In this document: one piece after another, positions 2,002 through 44,468 of the stretch | Position numbering within the stretch: position 1 is the stretch's first letter | How the letters are laid out: the number at the start of each line of letters is the position of its first letter | Virus record (IMG/VR): IMGVR_UViG_3300031539_000043 | Location: 1-53,354 of that record | Origin: a virus | Lineage: Duplodnaviria > Caudoviricetes | Length of the DNA stretch: 53,354 bases | Direction: 5' to 3' (one strand) | Program-made: the position numbers and the translations under genes | The notes under the pieces: generated by a model | Database searches by the model: none | The model's input: only the letters and a program-made list of their open reading frames with translations | Told to the model about the DNA's origin: nothing

Positions 2002-3033
2002 CTAGAATCCAGCTGGACATGTGTATGGATTTTTCTTTAAGATTTTTCTAAATCTTTCAAATTCAGGTGCATTATTCCAAACTTTAAAGATAGACTTTTT
2101 CTTTAAAGAAACACCACATTTTTTATGGTCTGCAAAACTACATGGAATTAGATGCATACTTGGAGAAATATATACAGACATTCTAGAACTTTCACATGAG
2201 TCAACAGACATCTTCTGTAGATCATTCATTTCTACATATTGAAGAACATGATTTACAAGGCAAGAATCCATACCAACCTTCATTTTACAAGAAGATTCTA
2301 TAATCCTTTCTGAAAAAGTTTTTAACTGATATGGGGTTGGGGTAAAATCAATGAGATCCAACGCCTGACCTTGTGGTTTAAACAATAGAAATACTATAGC
2401 ATTCAACTTATTTATGTCAAACAATGTTGATTGATTTCCATTTGTTCTCCATGGATTGTATCCAAAAATAATTTTTATAGCGTCTTCGTATGTATGTCTG
2501 GTTAATATAAAATGAATATTAGTTTTAATTTTGGCATTAGTTAATCTTTGTAAAGCTGAATATGAATAATCTTTTCTATAATCTGACACTGCTACAGCAC
2601 CCGCATATTTTTTGGATATTTCAATATGTTCATCTGTTAATCCATTTCCACTTGTAGTGTAGTTTGGAACAACATTATTTTCCCGACAATATTCAAGAAT
2701 CTCTTTAAAGTTTTCATGAAGATTGGGGTCACCTCTTCCACCCAGAGCTACTTGGTTTACATGGTATTTTGCTTCATCTATTATTTTTTTGAAATTGTCA
2801 AGGGTCATGTTATCTTCATATTCACGACCCTGGTAACAAATTTCACAATTGTTTATACAATGTCCCATGATTCCAACATCTAACATAGATGGAAATTCCA
2901 ACTGAAAGGGGTCTGGATGCCCGTTGATGCCTCTTAAGACTTCAATCCCAGTGTTGGTGTTAAACAAAAGTTCGTATTCATCATTAGAGAATTGTTTGTC
3001 AAATTCTCCAACCATAAAAGTATTATCTGACAT
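2002..3033 (-). CDS. Radical SAM protein with C-terminal SPASM/twitch-like cysteines
   Basis: CxxxCxxC (CINNCEIC), GGRGDP, NYTTSG; C-terminal SCES...PCSF...CP. Start placed at MSDNTF (3033), overlapping the upstream gene end; ORF track extends to 3111. Confidence 0.9.
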   Translation of the reverse strand: MSDNTFMVGEFDKQFSNDEYELLFNTNTGIEVLRGINGHPDPFQLEFPSMLDVGIMGHCINNCEICYQGREYEDNMTLDNFKKIIDEAKYHVNQVALGGRGDPNLHENFKEILEYCRENNVVPNYTTSGNGLTDEHIEISKKYAGAVAVSDYRKDYSYSALQRLTNAKIKTNIHFILTRHTYEDAIKIIFGYNPWRTNGNQSTLFDINKLNAIVFLLFKPQGQALDLIDFTPTPYQLKTFSERIIESSCKMKVGMDSCLVNHVLQYVEMNDLQKMSVDSCESSRMSVYISPSMHLIPCSFADHKKCGVSLKKKSIFKVWNNAPEFERFRKILKKNPYTCPAGF

Positions 3034-3289
3034 TTTCAATAATTTCTTCATCTTTGATTTTGTTTTCCTCTTCACTAATAACCTCCAATCTTTTAAGAAT
3101 GTCAAATTCATATATAGATCTTAAAGCAAATACTAATAACATAACCATAAGAGCAGAGACTTTACCAAAGCCAAGTGTAAAAATAAATATCGCTATTAAT
3201 ATCATATCTCCAAAATTTGATCTTTTATAATCAAAATTTGTCTTATAAATAAATTTTAAGAGTTTTGTTACTAAAATTTTTTTGTTCAT
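3023..3289 (-). CDS. Small membrane protein
   Basis: 88 aa with a long hydrophobic stretch; overlaps both neighbours. Confidence 0.65.
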   Translation of the reverse strand: MNKKILVTKLLKFIYKTNFDYKRSNFGDMILIAIFIFTLGFGKVSALMVMLLVFALRSIYEFDILKRLEVISEEENKIKDEEIIENVR

Positions 3290-30161: not shown

Positions 30162-30344
30162 CTATCCCTCCTTTAAAACTAAATCTTTAATATCAAACAT
30201 ATAAATCTCTTTTTTTTCAGGTAAGATATTTAAAGGTTTTATTTTTTTAACTTCTGTAGTTGTTTTATTAATTTCATAAAAATAACTGAATCTATCACAA
30301 ATAGTAGATCTTGTATATGTTCCATTTGATGGTGATGCACTCAT
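30162..30344 (-). CDS. Small hypothetical protein
   Basis: 60-aa ORF overlapping the RNAP beta stop and abutting the next gene. Confidence 0.55.
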   Translation of the reverse strand: MSASPSNGTYTRSTICDRFSYFYEINKTTTEVKKIKPLNILPEKKEIYMFDIKDLVLKEG

Positions 30345-33340
30345 TTATGTTCTACCCCCAAAACCGTTAGATATGAGTTAAATAATTTAACTGCTTCTGG
30401 AGTTATATCTATCTTTTTCTTTTCATCATCCAGATCAAATTCAATTAAACTCCTAATATAACGATTTTTTAAATCAATACAATCTGATTTTGTAGTAAAG
30501 AACTCAAATAGATTATTCGGAGCATCATGACCTACAATACATGCCATTTCCATTTCACCTATTCTTTGTCCTCCTTTATTTTTCCTTCCTCCTAATGGTT
30601 GAAGTGTTCTTTTTGCATATGTACCAATTCCTCTAGCAGCTATTTTCTCTTCTGCAATATGAACCATTCTAAAGAAATACATATATCCAACTGCAATTGG
30701 ATTTACTAAAAACGTCTTTGATAATGGGTCATATAATTCTTGTTTAAATAAACTGGCAGAATATTCTAAAGCTTTTTCAAGTTCTTCAATTTTTATAGAT
30801 TCAAAAGGAGGTTGAATTAAATATAAATCTTCAATAAATTTAGAATCAATGGTATCAGTCAACTGTTCTTCAAATTGTTTATAATACCAATTATCTTTTG
30901 TGTTATCCACAATTTTTATAAAATTTAACAAATATTCTTTTAACTGTGGTTGTTCTATATTATTATTTAACATTTCTATCATTTTAATTTTTATACCCTC
31001 TAATGCTATAGAAAGATGAAGTTCGTATAGTTGCCCAATATTCATTCTTGAGATTATACTCAAAGGATTTATACAAATATCCAAATGTCTTCCATCTTTT
31101 AATTGTGGCATTTTTTCATGTTCTACAATTCTTGATACAACACCTTTATTTCCATGACGGTTTCCTAGTTTATCTCCAACTTTAATTTTTCTAAAATGGA
31201 CTCCAATCATTTCAATATATATACCATTTATTCTCTCTCTTTTATTTTTATACTTTCCAACAAATGAAAATAAATCTAAACTGTTTTCTTTAATAAATTT
31301 ATCAGCTTCTACTTTTGATAATTTATCTTTGATTATTTTTTTAAGATAATTTTCATTTTCTTTTTGATTATGAATTCGTTCTTCAACCCATTTTTTAAAT
31401 TCTGGAATATCAGAATTCCATTCATTTGCATAAACATTTACTTCTGATATAATAAACTTCTTTTCTGCGTCTAATGTAGTTGTTTCTCTAAAAACAGAAT
31501 AATAATCATCAGAATTTAAATTCTTAATTTTAGCATATGGTTCCCCAACTTGAATTACACTGTATTCATCTGGAAGTGGTTTATATTTGTTTTTATCTAA
31601 ACTTAATAGAACTTTATTTGGTGGTATTTTAAATGATAGATCTCTATAGTGAACAGATGTTAAAATATCTTCACTAACTAAACGATCTGAAATCACAATA
31701 CCATCTTCATAATTGTTTCCATAATAAATCATAACTCCTGTTAAAAGATTTTTACCAAAGTTTATTTTTCCGCCTTTACAGAAATTACTTTCTGCTAACA
31801 CTTCTCCTTTCTTAAATTTATCACCAGGTTTAACATAGATATGCATAAAATCCATATGTTCAACATAAATTTTTCTATATGATATATCAAACACTTTAAC
31901 TTCTCCGGTTATATATTGAACCATTAAATATTTTTTATCAATATAAACAACTTCTCCATCATCTTTAGCTATTTTTACAAATTGTGTATATTTACTAAAT
32001 AATCCTTCACACCCAGATGAGATCATTGGTCTATCAAACTTTTTTAACATGATTGATTGTCTCATTTGTGAAGATGACATTTGTAGTCTGGTTTGGTCAT
32101 CATGTTCTAAAAATGGGACCATAGTTACAGGAATTGAGATTGGAAATTCGTTTTGTTTATTTGTAAATTTTAAATTATCATCCAAATCAACATTAGGAAC
32201 CAGATTTTGTAACACTCCACAATTATCCCTATCTGGAGTATCAACTGGGCATATTCTTCCAAACATTGTTGGACATATATCCCTTAAATGACTTGGAATG
32301 TTTTCTCTTTTAAATCCACCAGGACCTAAAAGACTAATCCTTGATAATTTAGTTAATTCTTCAATGGGATTTATTGAGAAATCAAATTGAACTATATCAG
32401 AAACATTACAATCAGAAATTACTTGGTTTGAATTAATATTAAATTTTGGTTGTCTGGCAGTTCTGTTTGAAAAACATAGGTCAAAAACATTTTTGGATAA
32501 TTTTGAATAAATTACATACTCAAAACATCTAACCCTTTTATTTGTAAATAAAGTATCATCTATATATTGGATTTTAATTGCTTCAATTAATTCTTCAATG
32601 ATTGTTGGTTTAGTTAAAAACTTTGCTGTTAGAACATCAACTTTTGGTATTAGATCTAAAGCATATATAATATCTTCCCCTTTTGATTTAGCATTGTATC
32701 TTGAGTATGTTTTTCCCAATTCAACTATAAAATCATCTTGTGTATAACCTTTTGATTCAGTATAATATTCCTTTAAATCATTAAGTAATAATTCATAAAG
32801 ATTAGTAGAGTTTTCATCTGTTGTTATATTATTAAGATTATACTTGTTTACCAATGTATTAGAATTATAGTAGGCAAACATTAATAGTGCTAGTGGAATT
32901 TTCTTTCCCAAGAAACTTACTTTAATATTTGGAATTATTTTATCTTTGAAAATCATAAGGGTTGCAACATTAGTTCTTAACTTAATAGATTCTCCCCTTG
33001 TTACAACTGGAATATCAAATAATTGAAACAGGGGAATCTTTTTTCGACCATTTATCATAATATAATTCCCATTAATTAACTTAGGAATAAACATACTAAG
33101 ATCTATTTTTGCTGGTCCTTTTTGAAGTAGTATGGATAAAGTTTGTTTTATAGTTTTTGATAATTCTCCGGATGTAAACCTGGAATCTTTTAAACCTATT
33201 TCTGTTATATCAAAACCAATTTCTTTAACTGGTTGTAATATTTCTGTAACTGTATCCAGTAGTTTATTGTAATCATTTTGTCTTATTCCGAAAATACTAT
33301 CGTCTGCATTGATTTTGTAATTAGGATTTATAATGTTCAT
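30341..33340 (-). CDS. rpoB: Phage multisubunit RNA polymerase beta subunit (compact, unsplit)
   Basis: LGPGG, GRICPVDTPD..NCG, PFLEHDD..R.QM.S.QMRQ, G.NYEDGIVIS, GDKLGNRHGNKGVVS, NPLSIISRMNIGQ, QPLGGRKNKGGQRIGEME, KSD. Confidence 0.95.
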   Translation of the reverse strand: MNIINPNYKINADDSIFGIRQNDYNKLLDTVTEILQPVKEIGFDITEIGLKDSRFTSGELSKTIKQTLSILLQKGPAKIDLSMFIPKLINGNYIMINGRKKIPLFQLFDIPVVTRGESIKLRTNVATLMIFKDKIIPNIKVSFLGKKIPLALLMFAYYNSNTLVNKYNLNNITTDENSTNLYELLLNDLKEYYTESKGYTQDDFIVELGKTYSRYNAKSKGEDIIYALDLIPKVDVLTAKFLTKPTIIEELIEAIKIQYIDDTLFTNKRVRCFEYVIYSKLSKNVFDLCFSNRTARQPKFNINSNQVISDCNVSDIVQFDFSINPIEELTKLSRISLLGPGGFKRENIPSHLRDICPTMFGRICPVDTPDRDNCGVLQNLVPNVDLDDNLKFTNKQNEFPISIPVTMVPFLEHDDQTRLQMSSSQMRQSIMLKKFDRPMISSGCEGLFSKYTQFVKIAKDDGEVVYIDKKYLMVQYITGEVKVFDISYRKIYVEHMDFMHIYVKPGDKFKKGEVLAESNFCKGGKINFGKNLLTGVMIYYGNNYEDGIVISDRLVSEDILTSVHYRDLSFKIPPNKVLLSLDKNKYKPLPDEYSVIQVGEPYAKIKNLNSDDYYSVFRETTTLDAEKKFIISEVNVYANEWNSDIPEFKKWVEERIHNQKENENYLKKIIKDKLSKVEADKFIKENSLDLFSFVGKYKNKRERINGIYIEMIGVHFRKIKVGDKLGNRHGNKGVVSRIVEHEKMPQLKDGRHLDICINPLSIISRMNIGQLYELHLSIALEGIKIKMIEMLNNNIEQPQLKEYLLNFIKIVDNTKDNWYYKQFEEQLTDTIDSKFIEDLYLIQPPFESIKIEELEKALEYSASLFKQELYDPLSKTFLVNPIAVGYMYFFRMVHIAEEKIAARGIGTYAKRTLQPLGGRKNKGGQRIGEMEMACIVGHDAPNNLFEFFTTKSDCIDLKNRYIRSLIEFDLDDEKKKIDITPEAVKLFNSYLTVLGVEHK

Positions 33341-36048
33341 TCGATTTTTTCTCCTTTTAGTATTTTATCCATAACTCCAGAATATATTCCTTCATACAAT
33401 ATACCCTGTCGAATACTTCGTTTGGGATTTGAAAAAGCCATAGCAAGTATCCAAGACTCTTTATTTGGAGTAGATTGAATACTAAAATATTCTGGCTGGA
33501 CTGTTTCACGATTAGGCAATAGTCTCCATTTTTTATGTCCAACCCACATAAGTTGGGATACAACACATTCATAATGAACATGATAAATACTTTTATCATA
33601 TACATGAAATAGCTCTTCAACTATTTGAGTATAATTCTTGTTAATAAATTTATGTAATATTCCTGTAATAAAACTAAGATCTCCAACTATATCTTGCTGT
33701 TTCATATCATTATCATGATTATCATCTTGTTCATCTTTTATAACTGCAGAACCAGATGTATGAAACGTTCTAAGAACTAATTGTGTAGATCTTTCTCCGA
33801 GAGTTTGAGCAGCTATTATTCCAATAAATCTACTGTTAAGAGTTTTATATAATTCGCCATAACATTTATGACAAATCTTTGAATTTTTACAAAGAATTGG
33901 ACTTCTAATAAGAATTCTTTTTCCCAATAGTGGCATACAATTATCTTTTTGAATAAGAGTATGACTTCCATCTTCTTGTTTCATCCAACGACCCACTAAC
34001 ATATATGCTTTTCTTTTGGTATTAACATCTACTTCTAAATGGTCAGTAGTACCACAATCTTCTAAGGTTGTACTAAGTTGAAGGTTTGTACATGTGAATA
34101 TTAATTTTCTTGATAAATATCCGCTTGTGCCTGTATTTAAAGCAATATCAAGTAGTCCTTTCCTACAACCATATGTTGAATAAAAGAATTCTTGTTGATC
34201 TAAACCATCAATTAGATTCCGTTTAATTGGTAATGGTAATATTTCACCATCAAAATTTGAGATAAATCCTCTTGTCAAAATTAACTGTTTAACTTGATCC
34301 CAACTACCTCGTGCTCCAGAATCAATCATATATGAATATTTAAAATGCTTTCTTAATTCATCTGTTAGATTCTTACTAGAAAAGCTAACTAACTGGTCTC
34401 TTATGTCACCTTTATATATATCATCTCTAAATTTTTGTGAATCTTCAAATTTACAATCATTTAACGACATGGTGCAACCAAATAAAGTTGCGTATTTAAA
34501 ACCAATCATTTTTATTTTGTCAAGAATTTCAATAACATCCGAGCTTTTATATTTATCTTTAATATCATTTAATATTGCCATTAATGTTTTTTTATTAACT
34601 ACTGTGTCAATAACTGGATAATCTTCAGGCAAACATGAGTTAAAAACCTGTTGACCTTTACTTATTTTATGATTTTTATACTCAACAATTTCTTTAAGAT
34701 TATCGAAACTATCATTTGTTAAAGAGTATATACCCAGAATAATATCTTGACTTGGTATTGTTGATAAATCTTCATTTGCTGGGCTATGTAGATTTTCTGT
34801 TATAAATATTTTCTTTATTATTTCTTGTTTTGATACTTCGGTAATGGGAATATATACTGCCATTTGGTCACCATCAAAATCAGCATTAAATGGAGAACAT
34901 ACCAAAGGATGTATTTTAATAACCATATCTAATGTTAACTTTATCTTAAAACCTAGCATACTAAGTCTATGAAGAGATGGTTGTCTATTAAGAATACAAA
35001 CTTCCCCTTTTATAACATCTTCACAAACTCGGTATAAAACATTAGATTTTAATTTAATACATTTATCAACAAAGTCAATAGCATTATTTAATAACTTGAA
35101 TTTTCCCATCTCAATTATTTTTTTGGATATTTGTAATTTATATATTTCAAGAATCATAAAATAAGGCAAAGCACATTCATCTAATTTAAGGGTTGGATCA
35201 GGAACAATAACAGCTCGCCCTGAAAAATCAATTCTTTTTCCAAGAATATTCCCTCTTATTAATCCTTCTTTTTTTGCCATTTTTTCTAATATTCTGGTAT
35301 ATAGTTCATTAACATCTTTTTGAATTTGTTTAAAATAAGTATAATATAGATCCTTATCCCTATGAATATTAAGAATTGTTTCTCGTATGATTTCTTTCTT
35401 GGTTAAAATTTGAGTATAATACCTATTTATTTTATCCATTAATTGTTTATTCTTTCCCCCTGCCAACATAGTAGGTCTTAATTCTGGTGGGAGAACTATA
35501 ACATGATTAATTAAAAGGCTATCAATATTTTCTAAAACCAACTTCCATTCTTCAACTTCATAACCAGCTTCACGTTCAGCAACAAAATGAATTAGCTTTT
35601 TTATAGCATCCGTCTTTTCCCAGGTTTGAGTCCCCTTTGGAATATATTCAGGATTAACGGTAACAACCATATCATCCCCATCTTGATATAAGACACTTTT
35701 TTCCATTTTCATTAAATCGTCAATTCCAGTCTTTAAAGTTTTTCCGCCAATATGTACAAGTAGATCATAGAATAGTGGATTAACTACAGGCATTGGTAAT
35801 ACTATTTTTGCAAATCTTGTTCTACGAACATTACTATTTACTATGTCTACTTTACACAAATCACACTGGCCGCCGGATTTAGAAACACCATAATATGTTC
35901 CACATTGACAGGTATAGTTTTTTAAGGGTCCAAATATTTGTTCAGAAAACAAACCTTGTGGGTGAAAATATTTTTTTCCAATGATTTTTATGGACGTGAC
36001 TTCTGGTAGGTCTTCACAGAATTCTTGGTAGTTCAATATTTTTGGCAT
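33337..36048 (-). CDS. rpoC: Phage multisubunit RNA polymerase beta' subunit (compact, unsplit)
   Basis: GLFSEQIFGP..YTCQCG Zn finger, VLPPELRP, GKRIDFSGRAVI, NRQPSLHR, catalytic NADFDGD, SGYLSRKL, AAQTLGERSTQLVLRTFH. Confidence 0.96.
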   Translation of the reverse strand: MPKILNYQEFCEDLPEVTSIKIIGKKYFHPQGLFSEQIFGPLKNYTCQCGTYYGVSKSGGQCDLCKVDIVNSNVRRTRFAKIVLPMPVVNPLFYDLLVHIGGKTLKTGIDDLMKMEKSVLYQDGDDMVVTVNPEYIPKGTQTWEKTDAIKKLIHFVAEREAGYEVEEWKLVLENIDSLLINHVIVLPPELRPTMLAGGKNKQLMDKINRYYTQILTKKEIIRETILNIHRDKDLYYTYFKQIQKDVNELYTRILEKMAKKEGLIRGNILGKRIDFSGRAVIVPDPTLKLDECALPYFMILEIYKLQISKKIIEMGKFKLLNNAIDFVDKCIKLKSNVLYRVCEDVIKGEVCILNRQPSLHRLSMLGFKIKLTLDMVIKIHPLVCSPFNADFDGDQMAVYIPITEVSKQEIIKKIFITENLHSPANEDLSTIPSQDIILGIYSLTNDSFDNLKEIVEYKNHKISKGQQVFNSCLPEDYPVIDTVVNKKTLMAILNDIKDKYKSSDVIEILDKIKMIGFKYATLFGCTMSLNDCKFEDSQKFRDDIYKGDIRDQLVSFSSKNLTDELRKHFKYSYMIDSGARGSWDQVKQLILTRGFISNFDGEILPLPIKRNLIDGLDQQEFFYSTYGCRKGLLDIALNTGTSGYLSRKLIFTCTNLQLSTTLEDCGTTDHLEVDVNTKRKAYMLVGRWMKQEDGSHTLIQKDNCMPLLGKRILIRSPILCKNSKICHKCYGELYKTLNSRFIGIIAAQTLGERSTQLVLRTFHTSGSAVIKDEQDDNHDNDMKQQDIVGDLSFITGILHKFINKNYTQIVEELFHVYDKSIYHVHYECVVSQLMWVGHKKWRLLPNRETVQPEYFSIQSTPNKESWILAMAFSNPKRSIRQGILYEGIYSGVMDKILKGEKIE

Positions 36049-36050
36049 GT

Positions 36051-36260
36051 TTACTCCTTTGAGTTAAATTTTTCTAAAATGTGTTTCGCCAAACTACGAA
36101 AATGTTCTTTAATTATTTCAGATACTAATTTATTAATTTTGGGCATGATAACTTTTACAATTTCATTTACATCTTTCTTTGCAATAATTTTTTCATTCTC
36201 TCGTACTTTTTTCAATATAATTTTATTCAACTGTCTTTCAAATGGACTCGGGGAGATCAT
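36051..36260 (-). CDS. Small basic helical protein between Ubl cluster and RNAP beta'
   Basis: 69 aa, AGGAGG RBS; overlaps the upstream gene and ends 2 nt before the beta' ATG. Confidence 0.7.
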   Translation of the reverse strand: MISPSPFERQLNKIILKKVRENEKIIAKKDVNEIVKVIMPKINKLVSEIIKEHFRSLAKHILEKFNSKE

Positions 36261-36714
36261 GGGCAGTTATACCTCCTATTTTTGATATCTCTTTTATTTT
36301 GTAATGTTTGGGATCTGGTTTTCTAAAACAATTATTTAAGTGCCAAGTTTCAACCATAGAAATTATCATAAATAAATAACTCATATCAAATTCTTTATTT
36401 TTTAGTTTTTCATCTATACAATATTCTCTTGTCTTTGGATCCATGTTTGGGTGACTTCCATTCATGATTTTTATAGATTGAACCTTATTATCTTTTGTTA
36501 TAAATGTTAACCCATTGATTTTAAAATTATTATTACAATCTTTAATTTTAAATAATTTATTTTCTTTAAATATATGTGTTGGGTAGATTTCTAAGGGGAA
36601 TAAAGATATTTCTCCTCTACCACGATTAACTTTATTTCTTGTAATCCATGAGTTCATTTTTATAAGGGTAGTTTCTACATCATGCTGCCCCAGTTTCTCT
36701 AATGAGTAAAACAC
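36238..36714 (-). CDS. Putative E2/UBC-like protein
   Basis: HPNMDPKTREYC = HPN-x8-C, the E2 active-site spacing; follows a ThiF-like gene. Start uncertain. Confidence 0.5.
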   Translation of the reverse strand: MFYSLEKLGQHDVETTLIKMNSWITRNKVNRGRGEISLFPLEIYPTHIFKENKLFKIKDCNNNFKINGLTFITKDNKVQSIKIMNGSHPNMDPKTREYCIDEKLKNKEFDMSYLFMIISMVETWHLNNCFRKPDPKHYKIKEISKIGGITAHDLPESI

Positions 36715-37612
36715 TAATCCTTTCCCCCTTTGAAGATAGGCTCATTGAATATTCTAAATCTTCTTTTTGTTTCGATATTAGATCAGCTATTACTTCTAAG
36801 ACTTTTGATGTGTCACTTCCTTTTGGAATGATAGCATATTCTGGAGAAGTTGTAAATGACATACTAAATTTTTTCCAAAGATGTTCTTCACCAACAAAAA
36901 CATCAATATCTTTTGTTTTTGCTTCTTGAACAGTTGTGTTGATATAATCTTCAAATGAATGAATTTTTTCTAATCCTTTATGAGTTTCGTATACTAAATC
37001 ATTAGAATTCTTTAATTTAATATCTTGAAATATATTGGATATTGTTTCATCAATATTTAAAGATTGAAGGACTTTATTGTTTATCATTTTATTTAAAATT
37101 TTTGGAGTTGAAATTAATTTATATGCTATAAATGCTGCTTCCCTAATTTCGCTTTTCTTTAAAATCATAAAATAACTACCTAAATGAGATTTTCTATGAA
37201 CAAATTGTCTACAGTCAATTACTAAACTTCTTTCATCAATATAAAATTTAACATCAATTTCTTGCTTTCTACTGCATATAAAATCTCGACAATCTATAAC
37301 TAAATCACATGGAGGTAGTTTTGTTGTTCCTTCATTGTATTCACTTTGGAATATTTGTGTCCTTGTGTATAATGGATCTACTCTATTAAGCAAACATTCA
37401 ACTTTTGGTTTTCCAATATCACTTTTTTTGAAGAATGAGCTATCTAAATTATTTTTTTCTACTATCTGTGGGTCAATTAATATCAATTTCTTAATATTTT
37501 CATTATAAGAAAGATGTTTATATAAAAAGCTTCCCAAACTACCTAAACCAATTATACATACATTTTGATAACATAATTCTGTCTTAGATTTTTTTGAATT
37601 CATATAATACAT
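36680..37612 (-). CDS. ThiF/E1-like protein (second copy, possibly degenerate) with extra C-terminal domain
   Basis: IIGLGSLGS, IDPQIVEKNNL, GKPKV, DLVIDCRD; lacks the NLxRQ arginine; ends LLIRETGAA. Confidence 0.75.
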   Translation of the reverse strand: MYYMNSKKSKTELCYQNVCIIGLGSLGSFLYKHLSYNENIKKLILIDPQIVEKNNLDSSFFKKSDIGKPKVECLLNRVDPLYTRTQIFQSEYNEGTTKLPPCDLVIDCRDFICSRKQEIDVKFYIDERSLVIDCRQFVHRKSHLGSYFMILKKSEIREAAFIAYKLISTPKILNKMINNKVLQSLNIDETISNIFQDIKLKNSNDLVYETHKGLEKIHSFEDYINTTVQEAKTKDIDVFVGEEHLWKKFSMSFTTSPEYAIIPKGSDTSKVLEVIADLISKQKEDLEYSMSLSSKGERISVLLIRETGAA

Positions 37613-37676: not shown

Positions 37677-38156
37677 TTATCCCTTTGACCCAGCTGGTTT
37701 CAGGAATTCTAACTCGTCACCATCTTTTAGAGTATAGGTTCCTTCAACATCTTTTCCGTTGACTAGACCTGGAGACATTTTTTCAATATTAAGAACTTCT
37801 CTGAGGAAGTCAGCAACCTCAGCAACTGAACGACCGGCAACTGGAAAGTTACCAGATGAAGCTCCACTGGATACACGAATAGTAGTAGAACATTTATCAC
37901 CTTTTTTCGCTGATGGTTTTGTAAGAACAGATGTAGCACAAAACTCAATAGCGTTCATTGCTTTGATGGCAGCTGCAGGAGCAATTGATGCTGTTGCAGC
38001 TTTTGGGGCTAATGGTCCTTGACTTTGTAATATTGCTTCGATGACAACAGCTTTAGTTTTTTTGGAAAGTCCTACAAGACCCATTTCTACTGCCAATGGT
38101 TTTAAATCATTTTTTACGTTCATGTTTTCAAGTTCTTCTCTTAAGTAAATCGGCAT
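37677..38156 (-). CDS. Ubiquitin-like (beta-grasp) protein with N-terminal Rho_N/HeH-like domain
   Basis: C-terminal VNG.....YTLKDGDELEFLKPAGSKG with terminal Gly; N-terminal EELENMNV..LK.LA...GL.GLSKKTK..VIEAIL; Ala/Pro linker; flanked by E1 genes. Confidence 0.8.
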   Translation of the reverse strand: MPIYLREELENMNVKNDLKPLAVEMGLVGLSKKTKAVVIEAILQSQGPLAPKAATASIAPAAAIKAMNAIEFCATSVLTKPSAKKGDKCSTTIRVSSGASSGNFPVAGRSVAEVADFLREVLNIEKMSPGLVNGKDVEGTYTLKDGDELEFLKPAGSKG

Positions 38157-38193: not shown

Positions 38194-38871
38194 TCATTTC
38201 ACGATTCGAGTTTTTGCATCAACGACCATCCTTGACATATCAAAATAAATTTCGGATGCGTTAATGTTTTGTTGAACAACGACGTTATAATATGCCCAAC
38301 ACATAATTGTAGCCACACTTAAATTAGTAAAATATAACTGCGGTTCTGATTTTGATAATTCTTCGCAAGACATTTCATCTGGGGATCTATCATCAGGCGT
38401 TGCAATTTCGGGATGATATGTACATAGATCTGGTGTTATATTAACACCCCCCTTTCTGATAAAAATTTGTACATTGCCATCTGTAAGTTCATTACCTCCA
38501 GAGATTAAAATAACATCATTTAATGTCTTACAATAGTTAGATACAACCATTCGAGTTTTGTGATTATCAACACAGAGAAAAACTATATCTTTCTCACCTA
38601 TGCCTCTAGTTATTGTATCTACAGTAATATATTCTGTAATGTATTCTATAATTAAATTTAAATATTTAATTTTAAGTTCACTTGCTTTAATTTCAGCTTT
38701 ATTACCTAACCTTATAAACTCTTGACGTTCAAGATTTTTATCTTCGTATTCATCACCATCAATTAAAGTTATAACAAAGCTAGTGTCAACTTGAGAATAA
38801 TTTAAAAATCTACATAGTCTTTCAATTAAAATACTTCCAACACCACCTAATCCAATTATTTTAATATTCAT
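38194..38871 (-). CDS. ThiF-family E1 activating enzyme
   Basis: IIGLGGVGS, DGDEYEDKNLERQ, CVDNHKTR, SGGNE, candidate catalytic SC (MSCEE). Confidence 0.9.
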   Translation of the reverse strand: MNIKIIGLGGVGSILIERLCRFLNYSQVDTSFVITLIDGDEYEDKNLERQEFIRLGNKAEIKASELKIKYLNLIIEYITEYITVDTITRGIGEKDIVFLCVDNHKTRMVVSNYCKTLNDVILISGGNELTDGNVQIFIRKGGVNITPDLCTYHPEIATPDDRSPDEMSCEELSKSEPQLYFTNLSVATIMCWAYYNVVVQQNINASEIYFDMSRMVVDAKTRIVK

Positions 38872-38872
38872 T

Positions 38873-40198
38873 TTATATAGTCCTTTTTAAGAATTTTGTA
38901 ACCTTTGAGAATGGAGTTGTGGGATTGCCATCTGGCGTAGGAATTAAAACTTTATTTTCATGTTCATGTAAATAAGCTTCACTCCGTAACTGTTCCTCTA
39001 CTAAATCCTCAGGGGTTTGGGGGAATTCTTGTTTGAGATCATAAGCTAATGATCCATCATCTTTTTCCATACATTCTGTTTCGTCTAATATAAAATTATT
39101 AGTTTCAGGTAAATCTTCATCTGGATCTATACTAGTTTCTAAAATTTCATATGCATATTCTAGTTTAGAATCTTTGAATATACAATTTCGACATGGGTTA
39201 TATTCATCAAGATTACCAGAATCTTCAAAATCTTCAAAATCTCCATGATCTGGAAATTTGATACCATCTTTAACTGGTCCAACATTTAATATATTTTTAG
39301 TATTACCCATTTTTCCTTTATTAATCATCCATTCTGTAAGGGAATCATAACCACTTCCGAAAAAGTCAAAGAATTCATAATCCATATAATTCTGATTACG
39401 AGCAGCGTATGTTTTGGAAGTCCATACTTTTCTAGAAACTTTCTTTAACCACTTTTTGTTAAATTGTCTTTGATTTTCAGAAACTTGAATCTCAAACCTT
39501 TTATCATATCTAATAGGAGGTTTTACAATTGTTTCAGGTTCAACCAAAGTCATTTTCCCATCAATATATTTATATATCTTTGTATTATTATAGGAATTGT
39601 ATGTATATGAATTTCGAGGAACTTCAACTGATACACATTTGTCAATATAATCACATGGATCTACAATGACACGATACCCATTGACAACAATTGATACTGA
39701 AAGACTTTGATAATCATCTGTTAAATGACCAACTGTAATATGAAGTCCGTCAAAATGTTTCTCATCTTTATCATCAGTTGGAGAATGAAATGCAGACATT
39801 CTAGCATGACTATGGATTGTTCCTATCAGATTATATCCAGGAATGCCGGTTCCTTCTTCATAAGCAAGAGATGCTGCAGTTACTTCTTGTTTTGGCACAC
39901 CCAAAGTATATTTATTTTTTTCTTCACTATAATATAAAAAGACATTGGCTTCTCCACTATAAGTTTCTACAACCGCTTTAAAAAATGATATTACTTTGGC
40001 CATTTGCGGGCCTGAAATTTTAGGCAGGTCCATTTTGGCCCATGGTTTTAATTCATTAAGTATTGAGATTTTATCAACCTTTGTTACACTTTCAACTAAT
40101 CCTACTTTCTTTTTTAGAAAAATACCTTGTTTTGCAATTAAATAACATATTTCATCTGCTGGTAGTTCTCCACCTTTATACAGGTATATTGGAAACAT
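38873..40198 (-). CDS. JAB/MPN-domain metalloprotease (deubiquitinase-like) with long acidic C-terminus
   Basis: GEA...PKQEVT...GTIHSHARMSAFHSPTDDKDE (E...HSH-x7-S-xx-D). Confidence 0.88.
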   Translation of the reverse strand: MFPIYLYKGGELPADEICYLIAKQGIFLKKKVGLVESVTKVDKISILNELKPWAKMDLPKISGPQMAKVISFFKAVVETYSGEANVFLYYSEEKNKYTLGVPKQEVTAASLAYEEGTGIPGYNLIGTIHSHARMSAFHSPTDDKDEKHFDGLHITVGHLTDDYQSLSVSIVVNGYRVIVDPCDYIDKCVSVEVPRNSYTYNSYNNTKIYKYIDGKMTLVEPETIVKPPIRYDKRFEIQVSENQRQFNKKWLKKVSRKVWTSKTYAARNQNYMDYEFFDFFGSGYDSLTEWMINKGKMGNTKNILNVGPVKDGIKFPDHGDFEDFEDSGNLDEYNPCRNCIFKDSKLEYAYEILETSIDPDEDLPETNNFILDETECMEKDDGSLAYDLKQEFPQTPEDLVEEQLRSEAYLHEHENKVLIPTPDGNPTTPFSKVTKFLKRTI

Positions 40199-42734
40199 TT
40201 AAAATTCTCCTTTCTTCTACTGGATAACTCATACAAACGTCTGGGTTAATGGTATACATACCATGGAAATTGGGGTATGCTCTTACAAATGGTTGTACTT
40301 TTAATTGAGTTTGGGAATATCTAGGGGTTAAGAATCCTATTCTATCAACCACTGTTTTTAATTCTGGGTAAAAATATCCATTTGAATAAGGATTTATAGC
40401 ATCTTCTCCGCTTAGATATTGAGTGACCAATCTATCCCCCACAAGTTGAAGACATAATAAATTTTGTAAATTCCGATTTTCAGAATATGGAATTGTAGTC
40501 ATATCCCCAGGTTGATATTTAAATTTTTTTTGATATATCATCGGAATATGTTTGAGCGATTTCCATTTTTTATTATTCATGCTAATTAAGTTAAAATTTT
40601 CTTTCAGTTCATCAGCCCAAAGTGTTGCACCATTTGAACATAATGCTAATGGAACATCTCCACCAGTATCTGTTAAGAAACCAACAATTATGTTTACATC
40701 TTTCATTGGAAAATTAAAGATTTGAGGTTTCTTTGCTTGAATTTTAAGACCAGATGTCATCCCATCATACTCTTTTTCAATATGTCTTAATGTACCAACA
40801 TTAACTGTAAAATCAGATGAACTTTTATTTAGATATATATGTTCAGATTTATTTCCATGTTGATCTTCTAATAATATATTAAGATTATTATCTTTAGATA
40901 GAAAACCTGTTATAGTTTTAACTTTTAGCATTTCAATTGGATTTATCCAATTAGATGTAACAACTTTATCTCCAACTTTAAATGATAAGTCCATATCAAA
41001 ACTTTCAATAAATAAATGTTCTTTATCTTTAAATATAACATTCATAGTCTCATTATAATCAGGTTTATAAATATTGTGTTCATCTATAAACAGGTAATTT
41101 TGTGCATAAGAGTTAGTCTTTATATGTAGATTAGCGATCATTGTCGTTCCTAATCTACATATAGAAGGAAGTTTTCTAAACCCCTTAGGATTAATAAGTC
41201 TTTTATTTAAGTCATCAGAAGTTATCCAATAATTTTTATCCCCTTTCATTTCTTCGAATAGTGTTGTCATTTTACCGCCAGGTAAAATATCTAAATCATT
41301 GAATCTTAATTTTTTGATAATTTTAACAGGCGCTGAAGCTCTACTGTAACAGTTTTTATAATCAAATAGAATATCATATATTTTATTTTTAGTTAATTTA
41401 ATTCCATTTATCAATATCTTTTTCATATTCATGACTTTTATATTTTTTATATCTTCTAGAGCTATTAAAGAAGATTTAATTCTAGCTTCAATTTTTCCAT
41501 CAATTCCATATCTCATATATAAAATTTTATTATAAATTTCATTACCATGTATATTAGTAGATTTTATTATAGATCCTTGTTTAACGACTGACCCATCTTT
41601 TAAAGTTATGGATTGAATAAATCTTTCTTTCATAATACTTTCTCTCAAGTAATTCTCGAATAATTTTGTTAATTTATATATTATAATCTTTTTATTACTA
41701 TCCTCTAGTTTTATATGGGTAAGTCTACTTGCTCCTCCTGGAGACATAAATGATCTCACGAAATATTTTTTATTTTTTATCATAAAAGAATCATTTACAA
41801 ATATTGGTATTCTTTCAATATTAATAGAATCCGCCATATTATCATATATACGAGTTTTTGTTTTTTCATCTATTTTAGTTGTTAGAGTTGGTTCATAAAA
41901 GATTTTTTCTACTAATTTTTGAAATCCATTATCTTCACACTTATCAAAACGAGTATTTGAGTTTTCAACTTTATTAATTACATTACCAATTGTATCATAA
42001 GGAATCCATTCAACATTATAGATAAACATAGGATCAACTTTACTATAATATTGCCATGTTAAATAATCACAAACAAATGGTATATCATTATAAGATTGTA
42101 CGTTATATATATAATCTTTGTTAAATACATTTCCCCAAAATGTCTTTATAACACCATTGATAGCAGAGGATACAGTTTTGTTAGAATAACTAGATGTTAT
42201 CGTTCCTGTACAAACTCTTTGATTCTTATTGATATTCATTAAAGGAATTATACATAAATAATCTCCAAAACTATTAAGAGGGGTAACCCTTGAAAAAACT
42301 TTTAATTCTTTAAAGTTATTAAATTGGTCTACTAAAATTATATAAATTAAATATGGAAATGCTAAATAAAATTTATATGGTTTTTGATTTTCTTTAAACC
42401 AGTTTTCATAACCGAATTTTTTGAGATCTCCAGTTGCTTTTAATTCTGCAACAGTCATTGACATATCATAATTAAGGAACATTGTTCTCATTTGTGGTGG
42501 TTCTTCAATTACAAATAATTTATAACTATTATGATTTATATTAATAGAATATCTACAGTTTGCTGGCAATATATAAGATATTTCTTTCTTCTCTTTAATT
42601 TTATCAAAAAACATATTAATTGGCAGTTGTTTTTTTCTTTCTAGTGTGCCTTCTCGTTCTTTTTCAATATCAACATAATGATTATCAAAATAACTAACGT
42701 TCCATTTATCAAGAATTAATTCTCGCTTTACCAT
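40176..42734 (-). CDS. Prokaryotic E2-like domain fused to a large unknown C-terminal region
   Basis: EEPPQMRT, LAFPYLIY, PLMNINKNQRVCTG (candidate catalytic Cys), FW...FN resemble Prok-E2 family D / PRTRC protein B; directly upstream of JAB, E1, Ubl. Confidence 0.7.
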   Translation of the reverse strand: MVKRELILDKWNVSYFDNHYVDIEKEREGTLERKKQLPINMFFDKIKEKKEISYILPANCRYSININHNSYKLFVIEEPPQMRTMFLNYDMSMTVAELKATGDLKKFGYENWFKENQKPYKFYLAFPYLIYIILVDQFNNFKELKVFSRVTPLNSFGDYLCIIPLMNINKNQRVCTGTITSSYSNKTVSSAINGVIKTFWGNVFNKDYIYNVQSYNDIPFVCDYLTWQYYSKVDPMFIYNVEWIPYDTIGNVINKVENSNTRFDKCEDNGFQKLVEKIFYEPTLTTKIDEKTKTRIYDNMADSINIERIPIFVNDSFMIKNKKYFVRSFMSPGGASRLTHIKLEDSNKKIIIYKLTKLFENYLRESIMKERFIQSITLKDGSVVKQGSIIKSTNIHGNEIYNKILYMRYGIDGKIEARIKSSLIALEDIKNIKVMNMKKILINGIKLTKNKIYDILFDYKNCYSRASAPVKIIKKLRFNDLDILPGGKMTTLFEEMKGDKNYWITSDDLNKRLINPKGFRKLPSICRLGTTMIANLHIKTNSYAQNYLFIDEHNIYKPDYNETMNVIFKDKEHLFIESFDMDLSFKVGDKVVTSNWINPIEMLKVKTITGFLSKDNNLNILLEDQHGNKSEHIYLNKSSSDFTVNVGTLRHIEKEYDGMTSGLKIQAKKPQIFNFPMKDVNIIVGFLTDTGGDVPLALCSNGATLWADELKENFNLISMNNKKWKSLKHIPMIYQKKFKYQPGDMTTIPYSENRNLQNLLCLQLVGDRLVTQYLSGEDAINPYSNGYFYPELKTVVDRIGFLTPRYSQTQLKVQPFVRAYPNFHGMYTINPDVCMSYPVEERRILNVSNIPV

Positions 42735-43439: not shown

Positions 43440-44468
43440 TTATCCTCCTTGCCTTATTTTTTTATGGACTAATTCATCCACATTGTCTCCGTACTTACTC
43501 ATGAGTAAACACGTATGATTACATAATTTACAAAACATTTTTTTATCTTTAATTATACATTGTTTAGTATAAGGATTAACTTCCATATCTTTTGTAAATA
43601 GATTATTTATGGAAACACTGTTAGGAGTATAATGTCCTCTAATACGAGTACATAATCTAATTGAACCATCAGCATCAACAGAAATATTATGTAAATCTTT
43701 TTCAATACCACAATCCATATTAGATGGCAATATATTCCAAATAGCAGGGAGTAAGAATTCCTTCATATGAATATTCAAACTTTTATCATCACATATTCTT
43801 TGAAATTGCTCTGCCAATTCGGGGGATATATGAACCAATTTCCATGGTTCTGTAACATTTGAAAAATCATAATATTCGCTTTTTGCAGTATCAATAAAAG
43901 TTATATCACTGTTAATTCCGTACCCAGTTAATTCTTTAATAAGATCATAAAGATATGGAATGTTTTCTCGCATAACAGTAATTTCAGCTACTAAATCTTT
44001 TACTATATATTTACGTTTTAAAAGATTTGTTAATCCACTGGTACTTTTCTTTACTCGATCAGATCCATCTTTTTGATTGAATACAGGATCTACTGATGAA
44101 GTAAAACCGCGTATATCCCCTCCCGTTTTTTCAAATAGTCGCTCGGTTAATGGTTGAATCTCAGGAGTGTTATTTGTAATGATTGTATAATTAATATTTT
44201 CTTTGTTGCAGAAATTAATAATATCAGGCAAGTCTTTTCTTAACAGTGGCTCACCTCCATATATGATTATGAAAATATCTGGATTATGAGCTTTGAATTT
44301 ACCTAATAATTCTATTACATACTCCGTGGACATTTCATTTTCATAATAATGTTTCATATCAGGATATATACTTGGTTTGTTTTTATAATTTCTTGTAATA
44401 CCACAGTATGAACATTTGAGATTACACCTTCTTGTTATAAATAAGTTGACTATTTTTATTTTATTCAT
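43440..44468 (-). CDS. Radical SAM protein with C-terminal Cys cluster
   Basis: TRRCNLKCSYC, GGEPLL, ITN; C-terminal C...DADGSIRLC...CKLCNHTC. Confidence 0.9.
   Translation of the reverse strand: MNKIKIVNLFITRRCNLKCSYCGITRNYKNKPSIYPDMKHYYENEMSTEYVIELLGKFKAHNPDIFIIIYGGEPLLRKDLPDIINFCNKENINYTIITNNTPEIQPLTERLFEKTGGDIRGFTSSVDPVFNQKDGSDRVKKSTSGLTNLLKRKYIVKDLVAEITVMRENIPYLYDLIKELTGYGINSDITFIDTAKSEYYDFSNVTEPWKLVHISPELAEQFQRICDDKSLNIHMKEFLLPAIWNILPSNMDCGIEKDLHNISVDADGSIRLCTRIRGHYTPNSVSINNLFTKDMEVNPYTKQCIIKDKKMFCKLCNHTCLLMSKYGDNVDELVHKKIRQGG

Follow-up and report, generated by a model that had tools for sequence, protein, structure and literature searches.

What does a module resembling the N-terminus of Rho do on a ubiquitin-like protein (Ubl) encoded by a phage, and does that Ubl serve a conjugation system of the phage's own? 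The question is raised by a 159-codon gene in the window, i.e. the whole stretch of 53,354 bases that was analysed, which is the entire IMG/VR virus record IMGVR_UViG_3300031539_000043 (Duplodnaviria; Caudoviricetes) and represents an estimated 17% or so of the genome. An earlier note, made from the letters of the window, had described the protein as a helix-extended-helix (HeH) module of the Rho_N type at about residues 5-45, followed by an Ala/Pro linker and a beta-grasp domain with a free terminal Gly. That the Ubl is built as HeH, linker and beta-grasp is close to certain, and all three parts were recovered in the present analysis. The Ubl is read here as the modifier of a phage-borne conjugation cassette, with the HeH as a passenger binding handle, a reading that receives about half of the overall weight.

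The open reading frame (ORF) of the Ubl is real. An AAGGAG-type ribosome-binding site lies upstream, and the gene is not an assembly oddity, since two further studies have DNA runs with contigs of at least 99% identity that cover it. Among 317 candidates, 227 were full-length relatives at E<=0.01, mostly with 50-60% identity over 98-100% of the length. In 50,697 deposited phage records tblastn detected no match to the Ubl, and no further copy of the HeH or of the beta-grasp was found among the 324 open frames of the window. In an RNA-seq library from an aquatic metagenome, two small contigs of at least 99% identity were found at positions 38346-38520 and 38681-38833, both in the gene next upstream (E1a, below) and none on the Ubl; DNA carry-over is a possible source of them. 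The window belongs to a large tailed phage marked by genes for terminase, baseplate wedge, SbcCD, topoisomerase II, helicase and tRNA nucleotidyltransferase (PHROG assignments). Its genes for RNA polymerase beta' (903 amino acids (aa)) and beta (999 aa) are unsplit, with at most 29% identity to anything among the 50,697 records. The lineage, which has no cultured relative in that collection, consists of uncultured phages of roughly 220-300 kb.

The N-terminal domain is a Rho_N-type HeH bundle, an identification secured at the level of the family and by the superposition of a predicted model on residues 1-48 of Rho. The window protein by itself matches Pfam Rho_N (PF07498) with E=0.0019 and 18.6 bits, residues 8-46 lying on profile positions 1-38 of 43, and scores 20.3 bits in a six-frame search; below significance at a gathering threshold of 24.9 bits, this match is suggestive. 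Regarding the relatives, Rho_N was matched at E<=0.01 by 25 of 38 aligned proteins (best 3e-6). Among 148 cluster representatives of the beta-grasp relatives, counted by hand with the 2972-aa protein P0176 left out, 69 matched at E<=0.01 and 45 reached the gathering score, and the Ubl of a complete 277-kb relative scored 29.3 bits. The Pfam search that had been proposed as a check thus falls short for the window protein and succeeds for part of its relatives. The stretch quoted in the earlier note corresponds to residues 7-43 and lies within this bundle.

Structure prediction, also proposed at that time, points the same way. In an AlphaFold2 model made from a 38-row alignment, residues 1-49 fold as an HeH with predicted local distance difference test (pLDDT) values of 83-88 and helices at residues 6-10, 14-24 and 35-45. 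The eight best rows of a VIA-align comparison of this model were all Rho N-termini (Z 5.5-6.8, root-mean-square deviation (rmsd) 1.3-2.4 Å, 44-48 residues aligned, 31-34% identity), residues 2-52 of the predicted model superposing on Rho 1-48. The row for 1a8v, for example, had a Z of 6.8 and an rmsd of 2.1 Å over 48 residues at 31% identity, with model residues 2-50 on Rho -1 to 46. Foldseek placed Rho chains at an rmsd of 0.8-1.1 Å over 40-43 columns, with E-values of only 0.56-1.1 because the HeH domain is short. Four HeH residues (L9, G29, K32 and K35) are invariant in the family alignment; K32 and K35 lie in the inter-helix segment, at the position of the R/K cluster of Rho. The domain shares with the Rho N-terminal bundle and with the HeH, SAP and LEM domains the three-helix HeH fold and a basic cluster where the last helix begins. 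In Rho the bundle precedes and assists an OB-fold RNA domain, as described in PMC11347177, whereas in the Ubl it leads through a flexible linker into a beta-grasp. Many viral proteins in BFVD bear the same small module on unrelated bodies, which was counted in favour of the HeH as a handle, and the HeH stretch is weakly matched by a PHROG annotated as endonuclease VII (E 0.008). As a separate observation, the complete 277-kb relative (G001) has an extra ORF of 120 aa (L120:1258-1620, minus strand; Rho_N E 0.007) with an HeH-like N-terminus, an acidic, Gln-rich tail and no beta-grasp. Its neighbours on either side are the homologue of o123 and the large E2-like protein, and the window lacks a counterpart.

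The linker was predicted to be disordered over residues 50-76 (pLDDT below 50). In 192 relatives with one HeH and one beta-grasp it had a median length of 37 aa (range 4-66) and consisted of A (17%), S (11%), K (10%), T (9%), G (9%) and P (8%); the Ala/Pro-rich description holds. The beta-grasp is the best conserved part of the Ubl, with about 25 invariant columns. At the family level it matched TGS in 27, ThiS in 8 and MoaD_arch in 14 of 38 relatives; the window Ubl itself matches TGS below threshold, and several relatives exceed the ThiS threshold, e.g. the poly-Ubl P0142 with 67.8 bits. The model of this domain is partly confident, with pLDDT values of 41-86 across residues 80-159 and below 50 at residues 93-102. 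Its VIA-align rows were MoaD, Fubi, ubiquitin, Caldiarchaeum ubiquitin and SAMP (Z 4.6-5.3, from residue 92 or 103 to residue 158), and the best Foldseek row was the ThiS-like 2cu3 (E 0.11). The best PDB profile hit of the Ubl family, an FHA-domain kinase on the beta-grasp (E 0.028), was taken as a chance match.

G156 and G159 are invariant in the family alignment. In the window ORF the C-terminal Gly, directly followed by the stop codon in the ending AGSKG-stop, is free, as had been claimed, and is available for adenylation. The additional claim that no maturation by a JAB peptidase is needed stands for this gene and fails for the family. Among the 120 relatives listed, the C-terminus was Gly in 64, Gly-Cys in 50 and Gly followed by F, Y, Q or L in 6; a peptidase would be needed in relatives because 56 of these 120 carry one residue past the Gly and because some are tandem poly-Ubls, and a JAB gene is indeed kept in 65 of 69 viral loci. 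Across those 69 loci, the ends were Gly (47), Gly-Cys (16), Gly with one or two other residues after it (4) and odd or truncated (2). Overall, about 45% of the relatives have 1-2 residues past the terminal Gly. In some HeH-Ubl relatives a Lys/Ala-rich tail of about 65 aa extends past the Gly.

A survey of N-terminal fusions, likewise foreseen in the earlier note, found the HeH-Ubl to be a widespread viral architecture. An exhaustive HMMER search with beta-grasp residues 78-159 yielded 438 cluster representatives at E<=1e-3 (92 at E<=1e-10), the best 149 of which were surveyed with two family-specific hidden Markov models (HMMs) at a domain E-value of at most 1e-3. At least one HeH was present in 85 of these 149 best relatives: 73 had one HeH and one beta-grasp, and 12 had at least two HeH and one beta-grasp (three copies by eye in one case). 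Another 51 had one beta-grasp and no detectable HeH, some as stand-alone domains of 65-83 aa and others with different N-terminal stretches; 12 were tandem arrays of 2-4 beta-grasps, each unit ending in AG-x-KG; and one (P0176) was scored by neither HMM. Because no HeH was detectable in 64 of the 149, the module is evidently not needed for the chemistry of the Ubl. The tandem polyubiquitin-like or otherwise unusual relatives were P0122, P0127, P0142, P0205, P0207 and P0259, P0159 and P0251, and P0176, a protein with 13 matched stretches.

Viral proteins make up 98-100% of the nearest Atlas clusters, in which 51% and 15% of the members carry Rho_N. HeH-less chromosomal relatives were found at 40 loci (L076-L115) in metagenome-assembled genomes of Desulfobaccales and Thermodesulfobacteriota; in the one locus examined (L077:8001-8663), the beta-grasp opens a 220-aa ORF beside a pyridoxal phosphate (PLP)-dependent enzyme and an FlK-type thioesterase. 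Longer fused beta-grasp forms were absent at E<=1e-3 among 159 candidates, which is weak evidence. A word-index search for shorter forms returned only one 33-aa fragment, the stand-alone forms having been found by the exhaustive HMMER search, and locus searches with poly-Ubl and stand-alone Ubl queries found again only loci of the same lineage.

The genes around the Ubl (Table 1) keep one order on one strand in 69 IMG/VR loci: radical S-adenosylmethionine (radical-SAM) gene, o106, o123, the 852-aa protein, JAB, E1a, Ubl, E1b, E2, (o69), beta' and beta. E1b is present in 69, E1a in 65, the 852-aa protein in 63 and the small E2 in 61 of the 69, with absences mostly at loci cut by contig ends, and in every locus two E1-like genes flank the Ubl. 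In the window the cassette genes overlap or abut, the Ubl being separated from its neighbours by 37 and 64 nt and beta' being preceded by a gap of 2 nt. Identity across the loci was about 50-58% for the Ubl and 60% (median) for E1a, as opposed to 33% for E1b, 37% for JAB, 30% for the 852-aa protein and 29% for the E2. Scans of the cassette for promoters (54 promoter-like sites versus 50.2 expected) and terminators (2 terminator-like sites versus 2.2 expected) remained at the level of shuffled sequence. The radical-SAM gene just upstream of the cassette, kept in 58 of the 69 loci, is PapB/SPASM-like (1.9e-17), with a weaker match to the viperin family (4.5e-13).

Table 1. Positions of the Ubl gene, its domains and neighbouring genes in the window
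Feature	Position	Strand	Size or residues	Remarks
Ubl gene	37677..38156	-	159 aa	ATG start; HeH, linker, beta-grasp; ends ...LKPAGSKG, then TAA
Rho_N-type HeH bundle of the Ubl	38013..38147	-	residues 4-48	Pfam Rho_N, AlphaFold2 model, VIA-align
Flexible Ala/Ser/Lys/Pro-rich linker of the Ubl	37896..38012	-	residues 49-87	conserved last part TKPSAKKGDK leads into the beta-grasp
ThiS/MoaD-type beta-grasp of the Ubl	37680..37895	-	residues 88-159	C-terminal LEFLKPAG-x-KG invariant or nearly so; Gly159 is the last residue
E1a, ThiF-type adenylating subunit	38194..38871	-	225 aa	Pfam ThiF 3.8e-17
E1b, second ThiF-type protein	36680..37612	-	310 aa	Pfam ThiF 2.6e-12
Small E2-like protein	36238..36714	-	158 aa as listed	HPN..P.....C; true start may lie further downstream
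JAB/JAMM peptidase	38873..40198	-	441 aa	motif HSHARMSAFHSPTD; C-terminal half variable
852-aa protein	40176..42734	-	852 aa	N-terminal ~250 aa Prok-E2_D/PRTRC_B-like; invariant Cys175
RNA polymerase beta'	33337-36048	-		downstream context, overlapping or abutting; in 69 of 69 loci; PHROG
RNA polymerase beta	30341-33340	-		downstream context, overlapping or abutting; in 69 of 69 loci; PHROG
Radical-SAM gene	43440-44468	-
Radical-SAM gene	2002-3111	-

Regarding the two E1-like proteins, the adenylation motif of E1a is intact as judged from its sequence. Its invariant residues include G7, G9, G10 and G12 (GxGGxG), D38, N46, R49, Q50, D102 and N103; Cys169 (in MSCEEL) and Cys191 are invariant as well, and its PDB profile matches were UBA5, MoeB, ThiF, Uba4 and BubCD. 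In E1b, which has an invariant ETGAA at its end, the arginine of the NLxRQ motif has no counterpart when the protein is aligned to MoeB, so that this subunit is probably inactive in adenylation. Together they look like a split E1 with an active and an inactive subunit, as in the eukaryotic heterodimeric E1s, and the pair recalls the inactive and active adenylation domains of BilD and NAE1-UBA3 (PMC10557695). Three large relatives have exactly two ThiF matches per genome. In a complex prediction of E1a and E1b with the Ubl as partner, a control in which E1b was replaced scored as high as the real complex, so that the prediction carries no weight for or against binding.

The small E2-like protein is predicted to be a divergent UBC-fold E2 with a eukaryote-style HPN...Cys arrangement, in which H88, N90 and C99 are invariant. 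It had no hit in Pfam, UBC included, and its best PDB sequence match was the active site of the E2 1yrv (E 0.24). Its model reached a pLDDT of 82.6 and a predicted template modelling score (pTM) of 0.73, and VIA-align rows 1-33 were all E2 enzymes with about 100 residues aligned (Z 4.2-4.9). The N-terminal domain of the 852-aa protein is E2-like as well: Prok-E2_D matches 13 of 16 of its relatives (best 2.2e-6). A profile-profile comparison with the small E2 gave no similarity (probability 0.1%). About 600 conserved residues follow this domain. The protein had no PDB sequence hit, and in the Atlas no usable feature hit was obtained and the structure rows stayed below a template modelling (TM) score of 0.3; it is a candidate for a target-recognition or E3-like part. 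The metal-binding motif of JAMM peptidases is H-x-H-x7-S-x2-D. The motif HSHARMSAFHSPTD of the JAB protein fits it and is conserved together with an upstream Glu; the protein matches Pfam Prok-JAB at 2.3e-4 with 21.5 bits, the cut-off of 25 not being reached.

The architecture of the Ubl, its conservation, the composition of the cassette and the strict synteny are direct observations, from which the following course of events is proposed. The Ubl is read as a conjugated modifier because the cassette has a candidate for every part that conjugation requires and because the Ubl and E1a are its most conserved members; that it becomes attached to proteins is considered quite probable. Gly159 would be adenylated by E1a, which probably forms a split E1 with the degenerate E1b. 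The Ubl would then move as a thioester to an E1 cysteine, for which Cys169 of E1a is the candidate, and from there to the E2 stage, where Cys99 of the HPN-Cys E2, Cys175 of the 852-aa protein or both would accept it, before ending on lysines of target proteins. The JAB peptidase would remove it again and, in relatives with residues past the Gly, would first expose the Gly. The HeH would stand outside this chemistry as a handle, carried on a flexible linker by the free Ubl and by every conjugate; it is regarded as a handle apart from the chemistry because the linker is floppy and because the HeH varies in copy number and is absent from many relatives. Its likeliest partner would be nucleic acid, bound weakly and non-specifically, with binding strengthened by copy number in relatives with 2-3 HeH. 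This is put forward tentatively, at slightly less than an even chance, on the basis of superfamily membership, the invariant lysines and the variation in copy number. Tagged proteins would then be kept at DNA or RNA; alternatively, tagging would be restricted to proteins already bound to nucleic acid. A bolder version, which is speculative and improbable, takes the tag of this core module as a reversible covalent anchor to DNA or RNA that the JAB peptidase releases, with phage RNA polymerase or host nucleoid or defence proteins as the targets and with the two-gene E1 as a free-standing counterpart, in a prokaryotic virus, of the eukaryotic heterodimeric E1s.

Several results weigh against the reading of the Ubl as a conjugated modifier with a nucleic-acid handle. 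On its own the window Ubl reaches neither the gathering threshold of Rho_N nor that of ThiS (E=0.002, 19.1 bits, threshold 22.5 bits). The PDB sequence-profile matches of the Ubl family to Rho are not significant (E 0.16 and 0.34), and a Foldseek search of the Ubl model against PDB and BFVD gave nothing at E<=1e-3, with no two-domain protein of HeH and beta-grasp prominent in BFVD. Conservation is lower in the HeH, with 4 invariant columns, than in the beta-grasp, with about 25, and the HeH was not detected in 63 of the best relatives that have a beta-grasp, nor in the unscored P0176. In the window the HeH has a net charge of 0; across the family the charge runs from -6 to +7, with a median of +2 and 67% of members positive. 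The helix bundle of Rho is described in PMC11347177 as assisting the neighbouring OB-fold RNA site, not as binding by itself. The beta-grasp is nearest to the sulfur-carrier families ThiS and MoaD, and the Desulfobaccales locus L077, with no E2 in the ORFs scanned, presents a sulfur-carrier-like setting. On the side of the enzymes, the fold match of the small E2 is modest (Z below 5), and 'Prok-E2' labels can mislead, as in the case of BilD, whose 'E2 family C' domain turned out to be an adenylation domain that is inactive (PMC10557695). Since the synteny spans the whole region, adjacency of the cassette to the polymerase genes may be a mere matter of conserved core genome. Every chemical step, the identity of the targets and the partner of the HeH are, moreover, things that we infer.

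Part of this evidence would also suit a Ubl that is conjugated and whose HeH is a protein-docking module, through which the Ubl or its conjugates would be brought to a partner such as the phage RNA polymerase or a cassette protein (the 852-aa protein through the 600 residues after its N-terminal domain, or E1b through its C-terminal half). Protein binding is known among HeH relatives, LEM having the protein BAF as its partner. The module of the Ubl is specifically Rho-like (31-34% identity to Rho 1-48) and no generic SAP, it is uncharged overall in the window, and a second HeH-like ORF without a beta-grasp lies inside the cassette of the complete relative. The cassette and the beta'/beta genes form one tightly packed, co-directional array in all 69 loci; however, with synteny extending over the region this adjacency is non-specific, and a variable copy number and a long flexible linker suit avidity binding to a polymer better than a one-to-one interface. 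Docking to a protein is regarded as rather unlikely, though it retains an appreciable share of the weight.

A role as a sulfur carrier like ThiS, MoaD or TtuB is judged quite unlikely. E1a would then adenylate Gly159 for the formation of a thiocarboxylate, the HeH would bring the carrier to tRNA or DNA thiolation, and JAB would only trim the C-terminus, as it does in CysO/QbsE-type systems. The nearest Pfam and NCBIfam beta-grasp families (ThiS, TGS, MoaD) fit such a carrier, as do the cellular relatives that adjoin a PLP-dependent, cysteine-synthase-like enzyme, the Gly-Cys end in 50 of the 120 relatives listed, which resembles a carrier-cysteine adduct, and the radical-SAM genes nearby; a nucleic-acid handle, too, would be sensible for the thiolation of nucleic acids. 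But the cassette keeps two E2-like proteins with invariant cysteines, and sulfur-carrier operons are described without E2s in PMC10557695. Of the two kinds of sulfur enzyme searched for, PP-loop ATPase (PF01171) and rhodanese (PF00581), neither was matched in the window; the complete 277-kb relative was free of PF01171 matches at E<=0.01 and had only the two ThiF genes, and the tandem poly-Ubl relatives fit precursors of modifiers. That the Ubl is never conjugated and acts as a non-covalent adaptor or assembly factor like lambda tail-assembly protein I, the ThiF-like proteins serving another substrate, is very improbable: non-conjugating pairs of Ubl and JAB in phages have been suggested earlier (PMC1779556), but throughout the family the AG-x-KG motif and terminal Gly show little or no variation, two E1-like genes flank the Ubl in every locus, and conservation within the cassette is highest for E1a and the Ubl.

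Conjugation by the cassette, the reading preferred here, has precedents, as systems of Ubl, E1, E2 and JAB are known in bacteria (PMC1779556, PMC10557695, PMC11601596). BilABCD, of the bacterial ISG15-like kind, likewise combines an E1 and an E2 with a Ubl whose C-terminal Gly is reactive and with a JAB/JAMM peptidase for both pre-processing and deconjugation (PMC10557695, PMC11601603), and the Ubls of that family have variable N-terminal domains (PMC11601603). It differs in that it forms part of a bacterial defence island, whereas the present genes are a core syntenic phage module; its E1 is a single IAD-AAD-CYS chain in place of two ThiF-like chains (225 and 310 aa), and here a second E2-like domain is found on the 852-aa protein. 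The N-terminal domains given for Bil and Bub Ubls in section 5 of PMC11601603, its Table S1 apart, are N/G-rich tails, coiled coils and DUF1508, not HeH. PADLOC models gave no match except weak ones to E1-E2 of the type of the cyclic-oligonucleotide-based antiphage signalling system (CBASS). Like the present cassette, Bub (6E/DUF6527) combines a Ubl, an E1, an E2 and a peptidase and includes poly-beta-grasp and N-terminally extended Ubls (PMC11601596), and BubCD is among the PDB matches of both E1a and E1b. Bub forms Tyr/Ser oxyesters and uses a DUF6527 protease (PMC11601596), in contrast to the invariant cysteines in E1a and the E2 candidates here; DUF6527 was not seen among the cassette proteins scanned.

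The nearest curated families are those of the ParB-related, ThiF-related cassette (PRTRC): E1a matches PRTRC_ThiF over its full length (2.8e-11), JAB matches PRTRC_A (7e-10), and PRTRC_B matches 4 of the 16 relatives of the 852-aa protein (best 0.0015). Both systems ride on mobile DNA, that of PRTRC being plasmids and integrative elements (PMC3318190). The scores are, however, far below the cut-offs (43.2 versus 144.75 bits for ThiF, 38.8 versus 101.8 bits for A), and the window had no match to PRTRC ParB, B, C or E, the absence of ParB being weak evidence as the window covers such a small part of the genome. PRTRC has a separate DNA-binding protein of the ParB family, whereas the only candidate DNA-binding element here is fused to the Ubl. 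With ThiS, MoaD, CysO, the SAMPs and TtuB, which are the nearest in sequence families and structure rows, the Ubl shares the beta-grasp and a C-terminal Gly activated by a ThiF/MoeB-type enzyme; it differs from them in the two E2-like proteins, the JAB, the N-terminal HeH and the lack of a detected PP-loop or rhodanese partner. The tail-assembly protein I of lambda and T1 is also a phage Ubl with a C-terminal Gly beside a JAB(-NlpC) peptidase (PMC1779556). It stands in a tail-assembly neighbourhood without E1 or E2, in contrast to the two E1-like and two E2-like genes found here between genes of DNA metabolism and of RNA polymerase.

No description of an HeH/Rho_N-Ubl fusion, of such a split E1 or of such a phage cassette was found in the literature, of which supplementary tables might list more. 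In its accessible part, an overview of jumbo-phage genomics mentions ubiquitin only in passing (PMC7824862), and in the corresponding part of a preprint on Asgard viruses one virus group is credited with three ThiF-like genes and no Ubl (10.1101/2021.07.29.454249). Prokaryotic Ubl conjugation has so far been known as anti-phage defence (Bil, type II CBASS) or from operons of unknown role (Bub, PRTRC), whereas here a whole Ubl toolkit lies in a conserved phage core, beside the phage's own RNA polymerase genes. If the HeH binds nothing, little more is left of the finding than a decorative domain on a cassette that is interesting for other reasons. If the Ubl is conjugated, the cassette would be a case of a prokaryotic virus running its own Ubl system and the HeH would turn the modification itself into a localisation signal, while the split E1 and the HPN-Cys E2 would bear on the origin of the eukaryote-type E1/E2 architectures.

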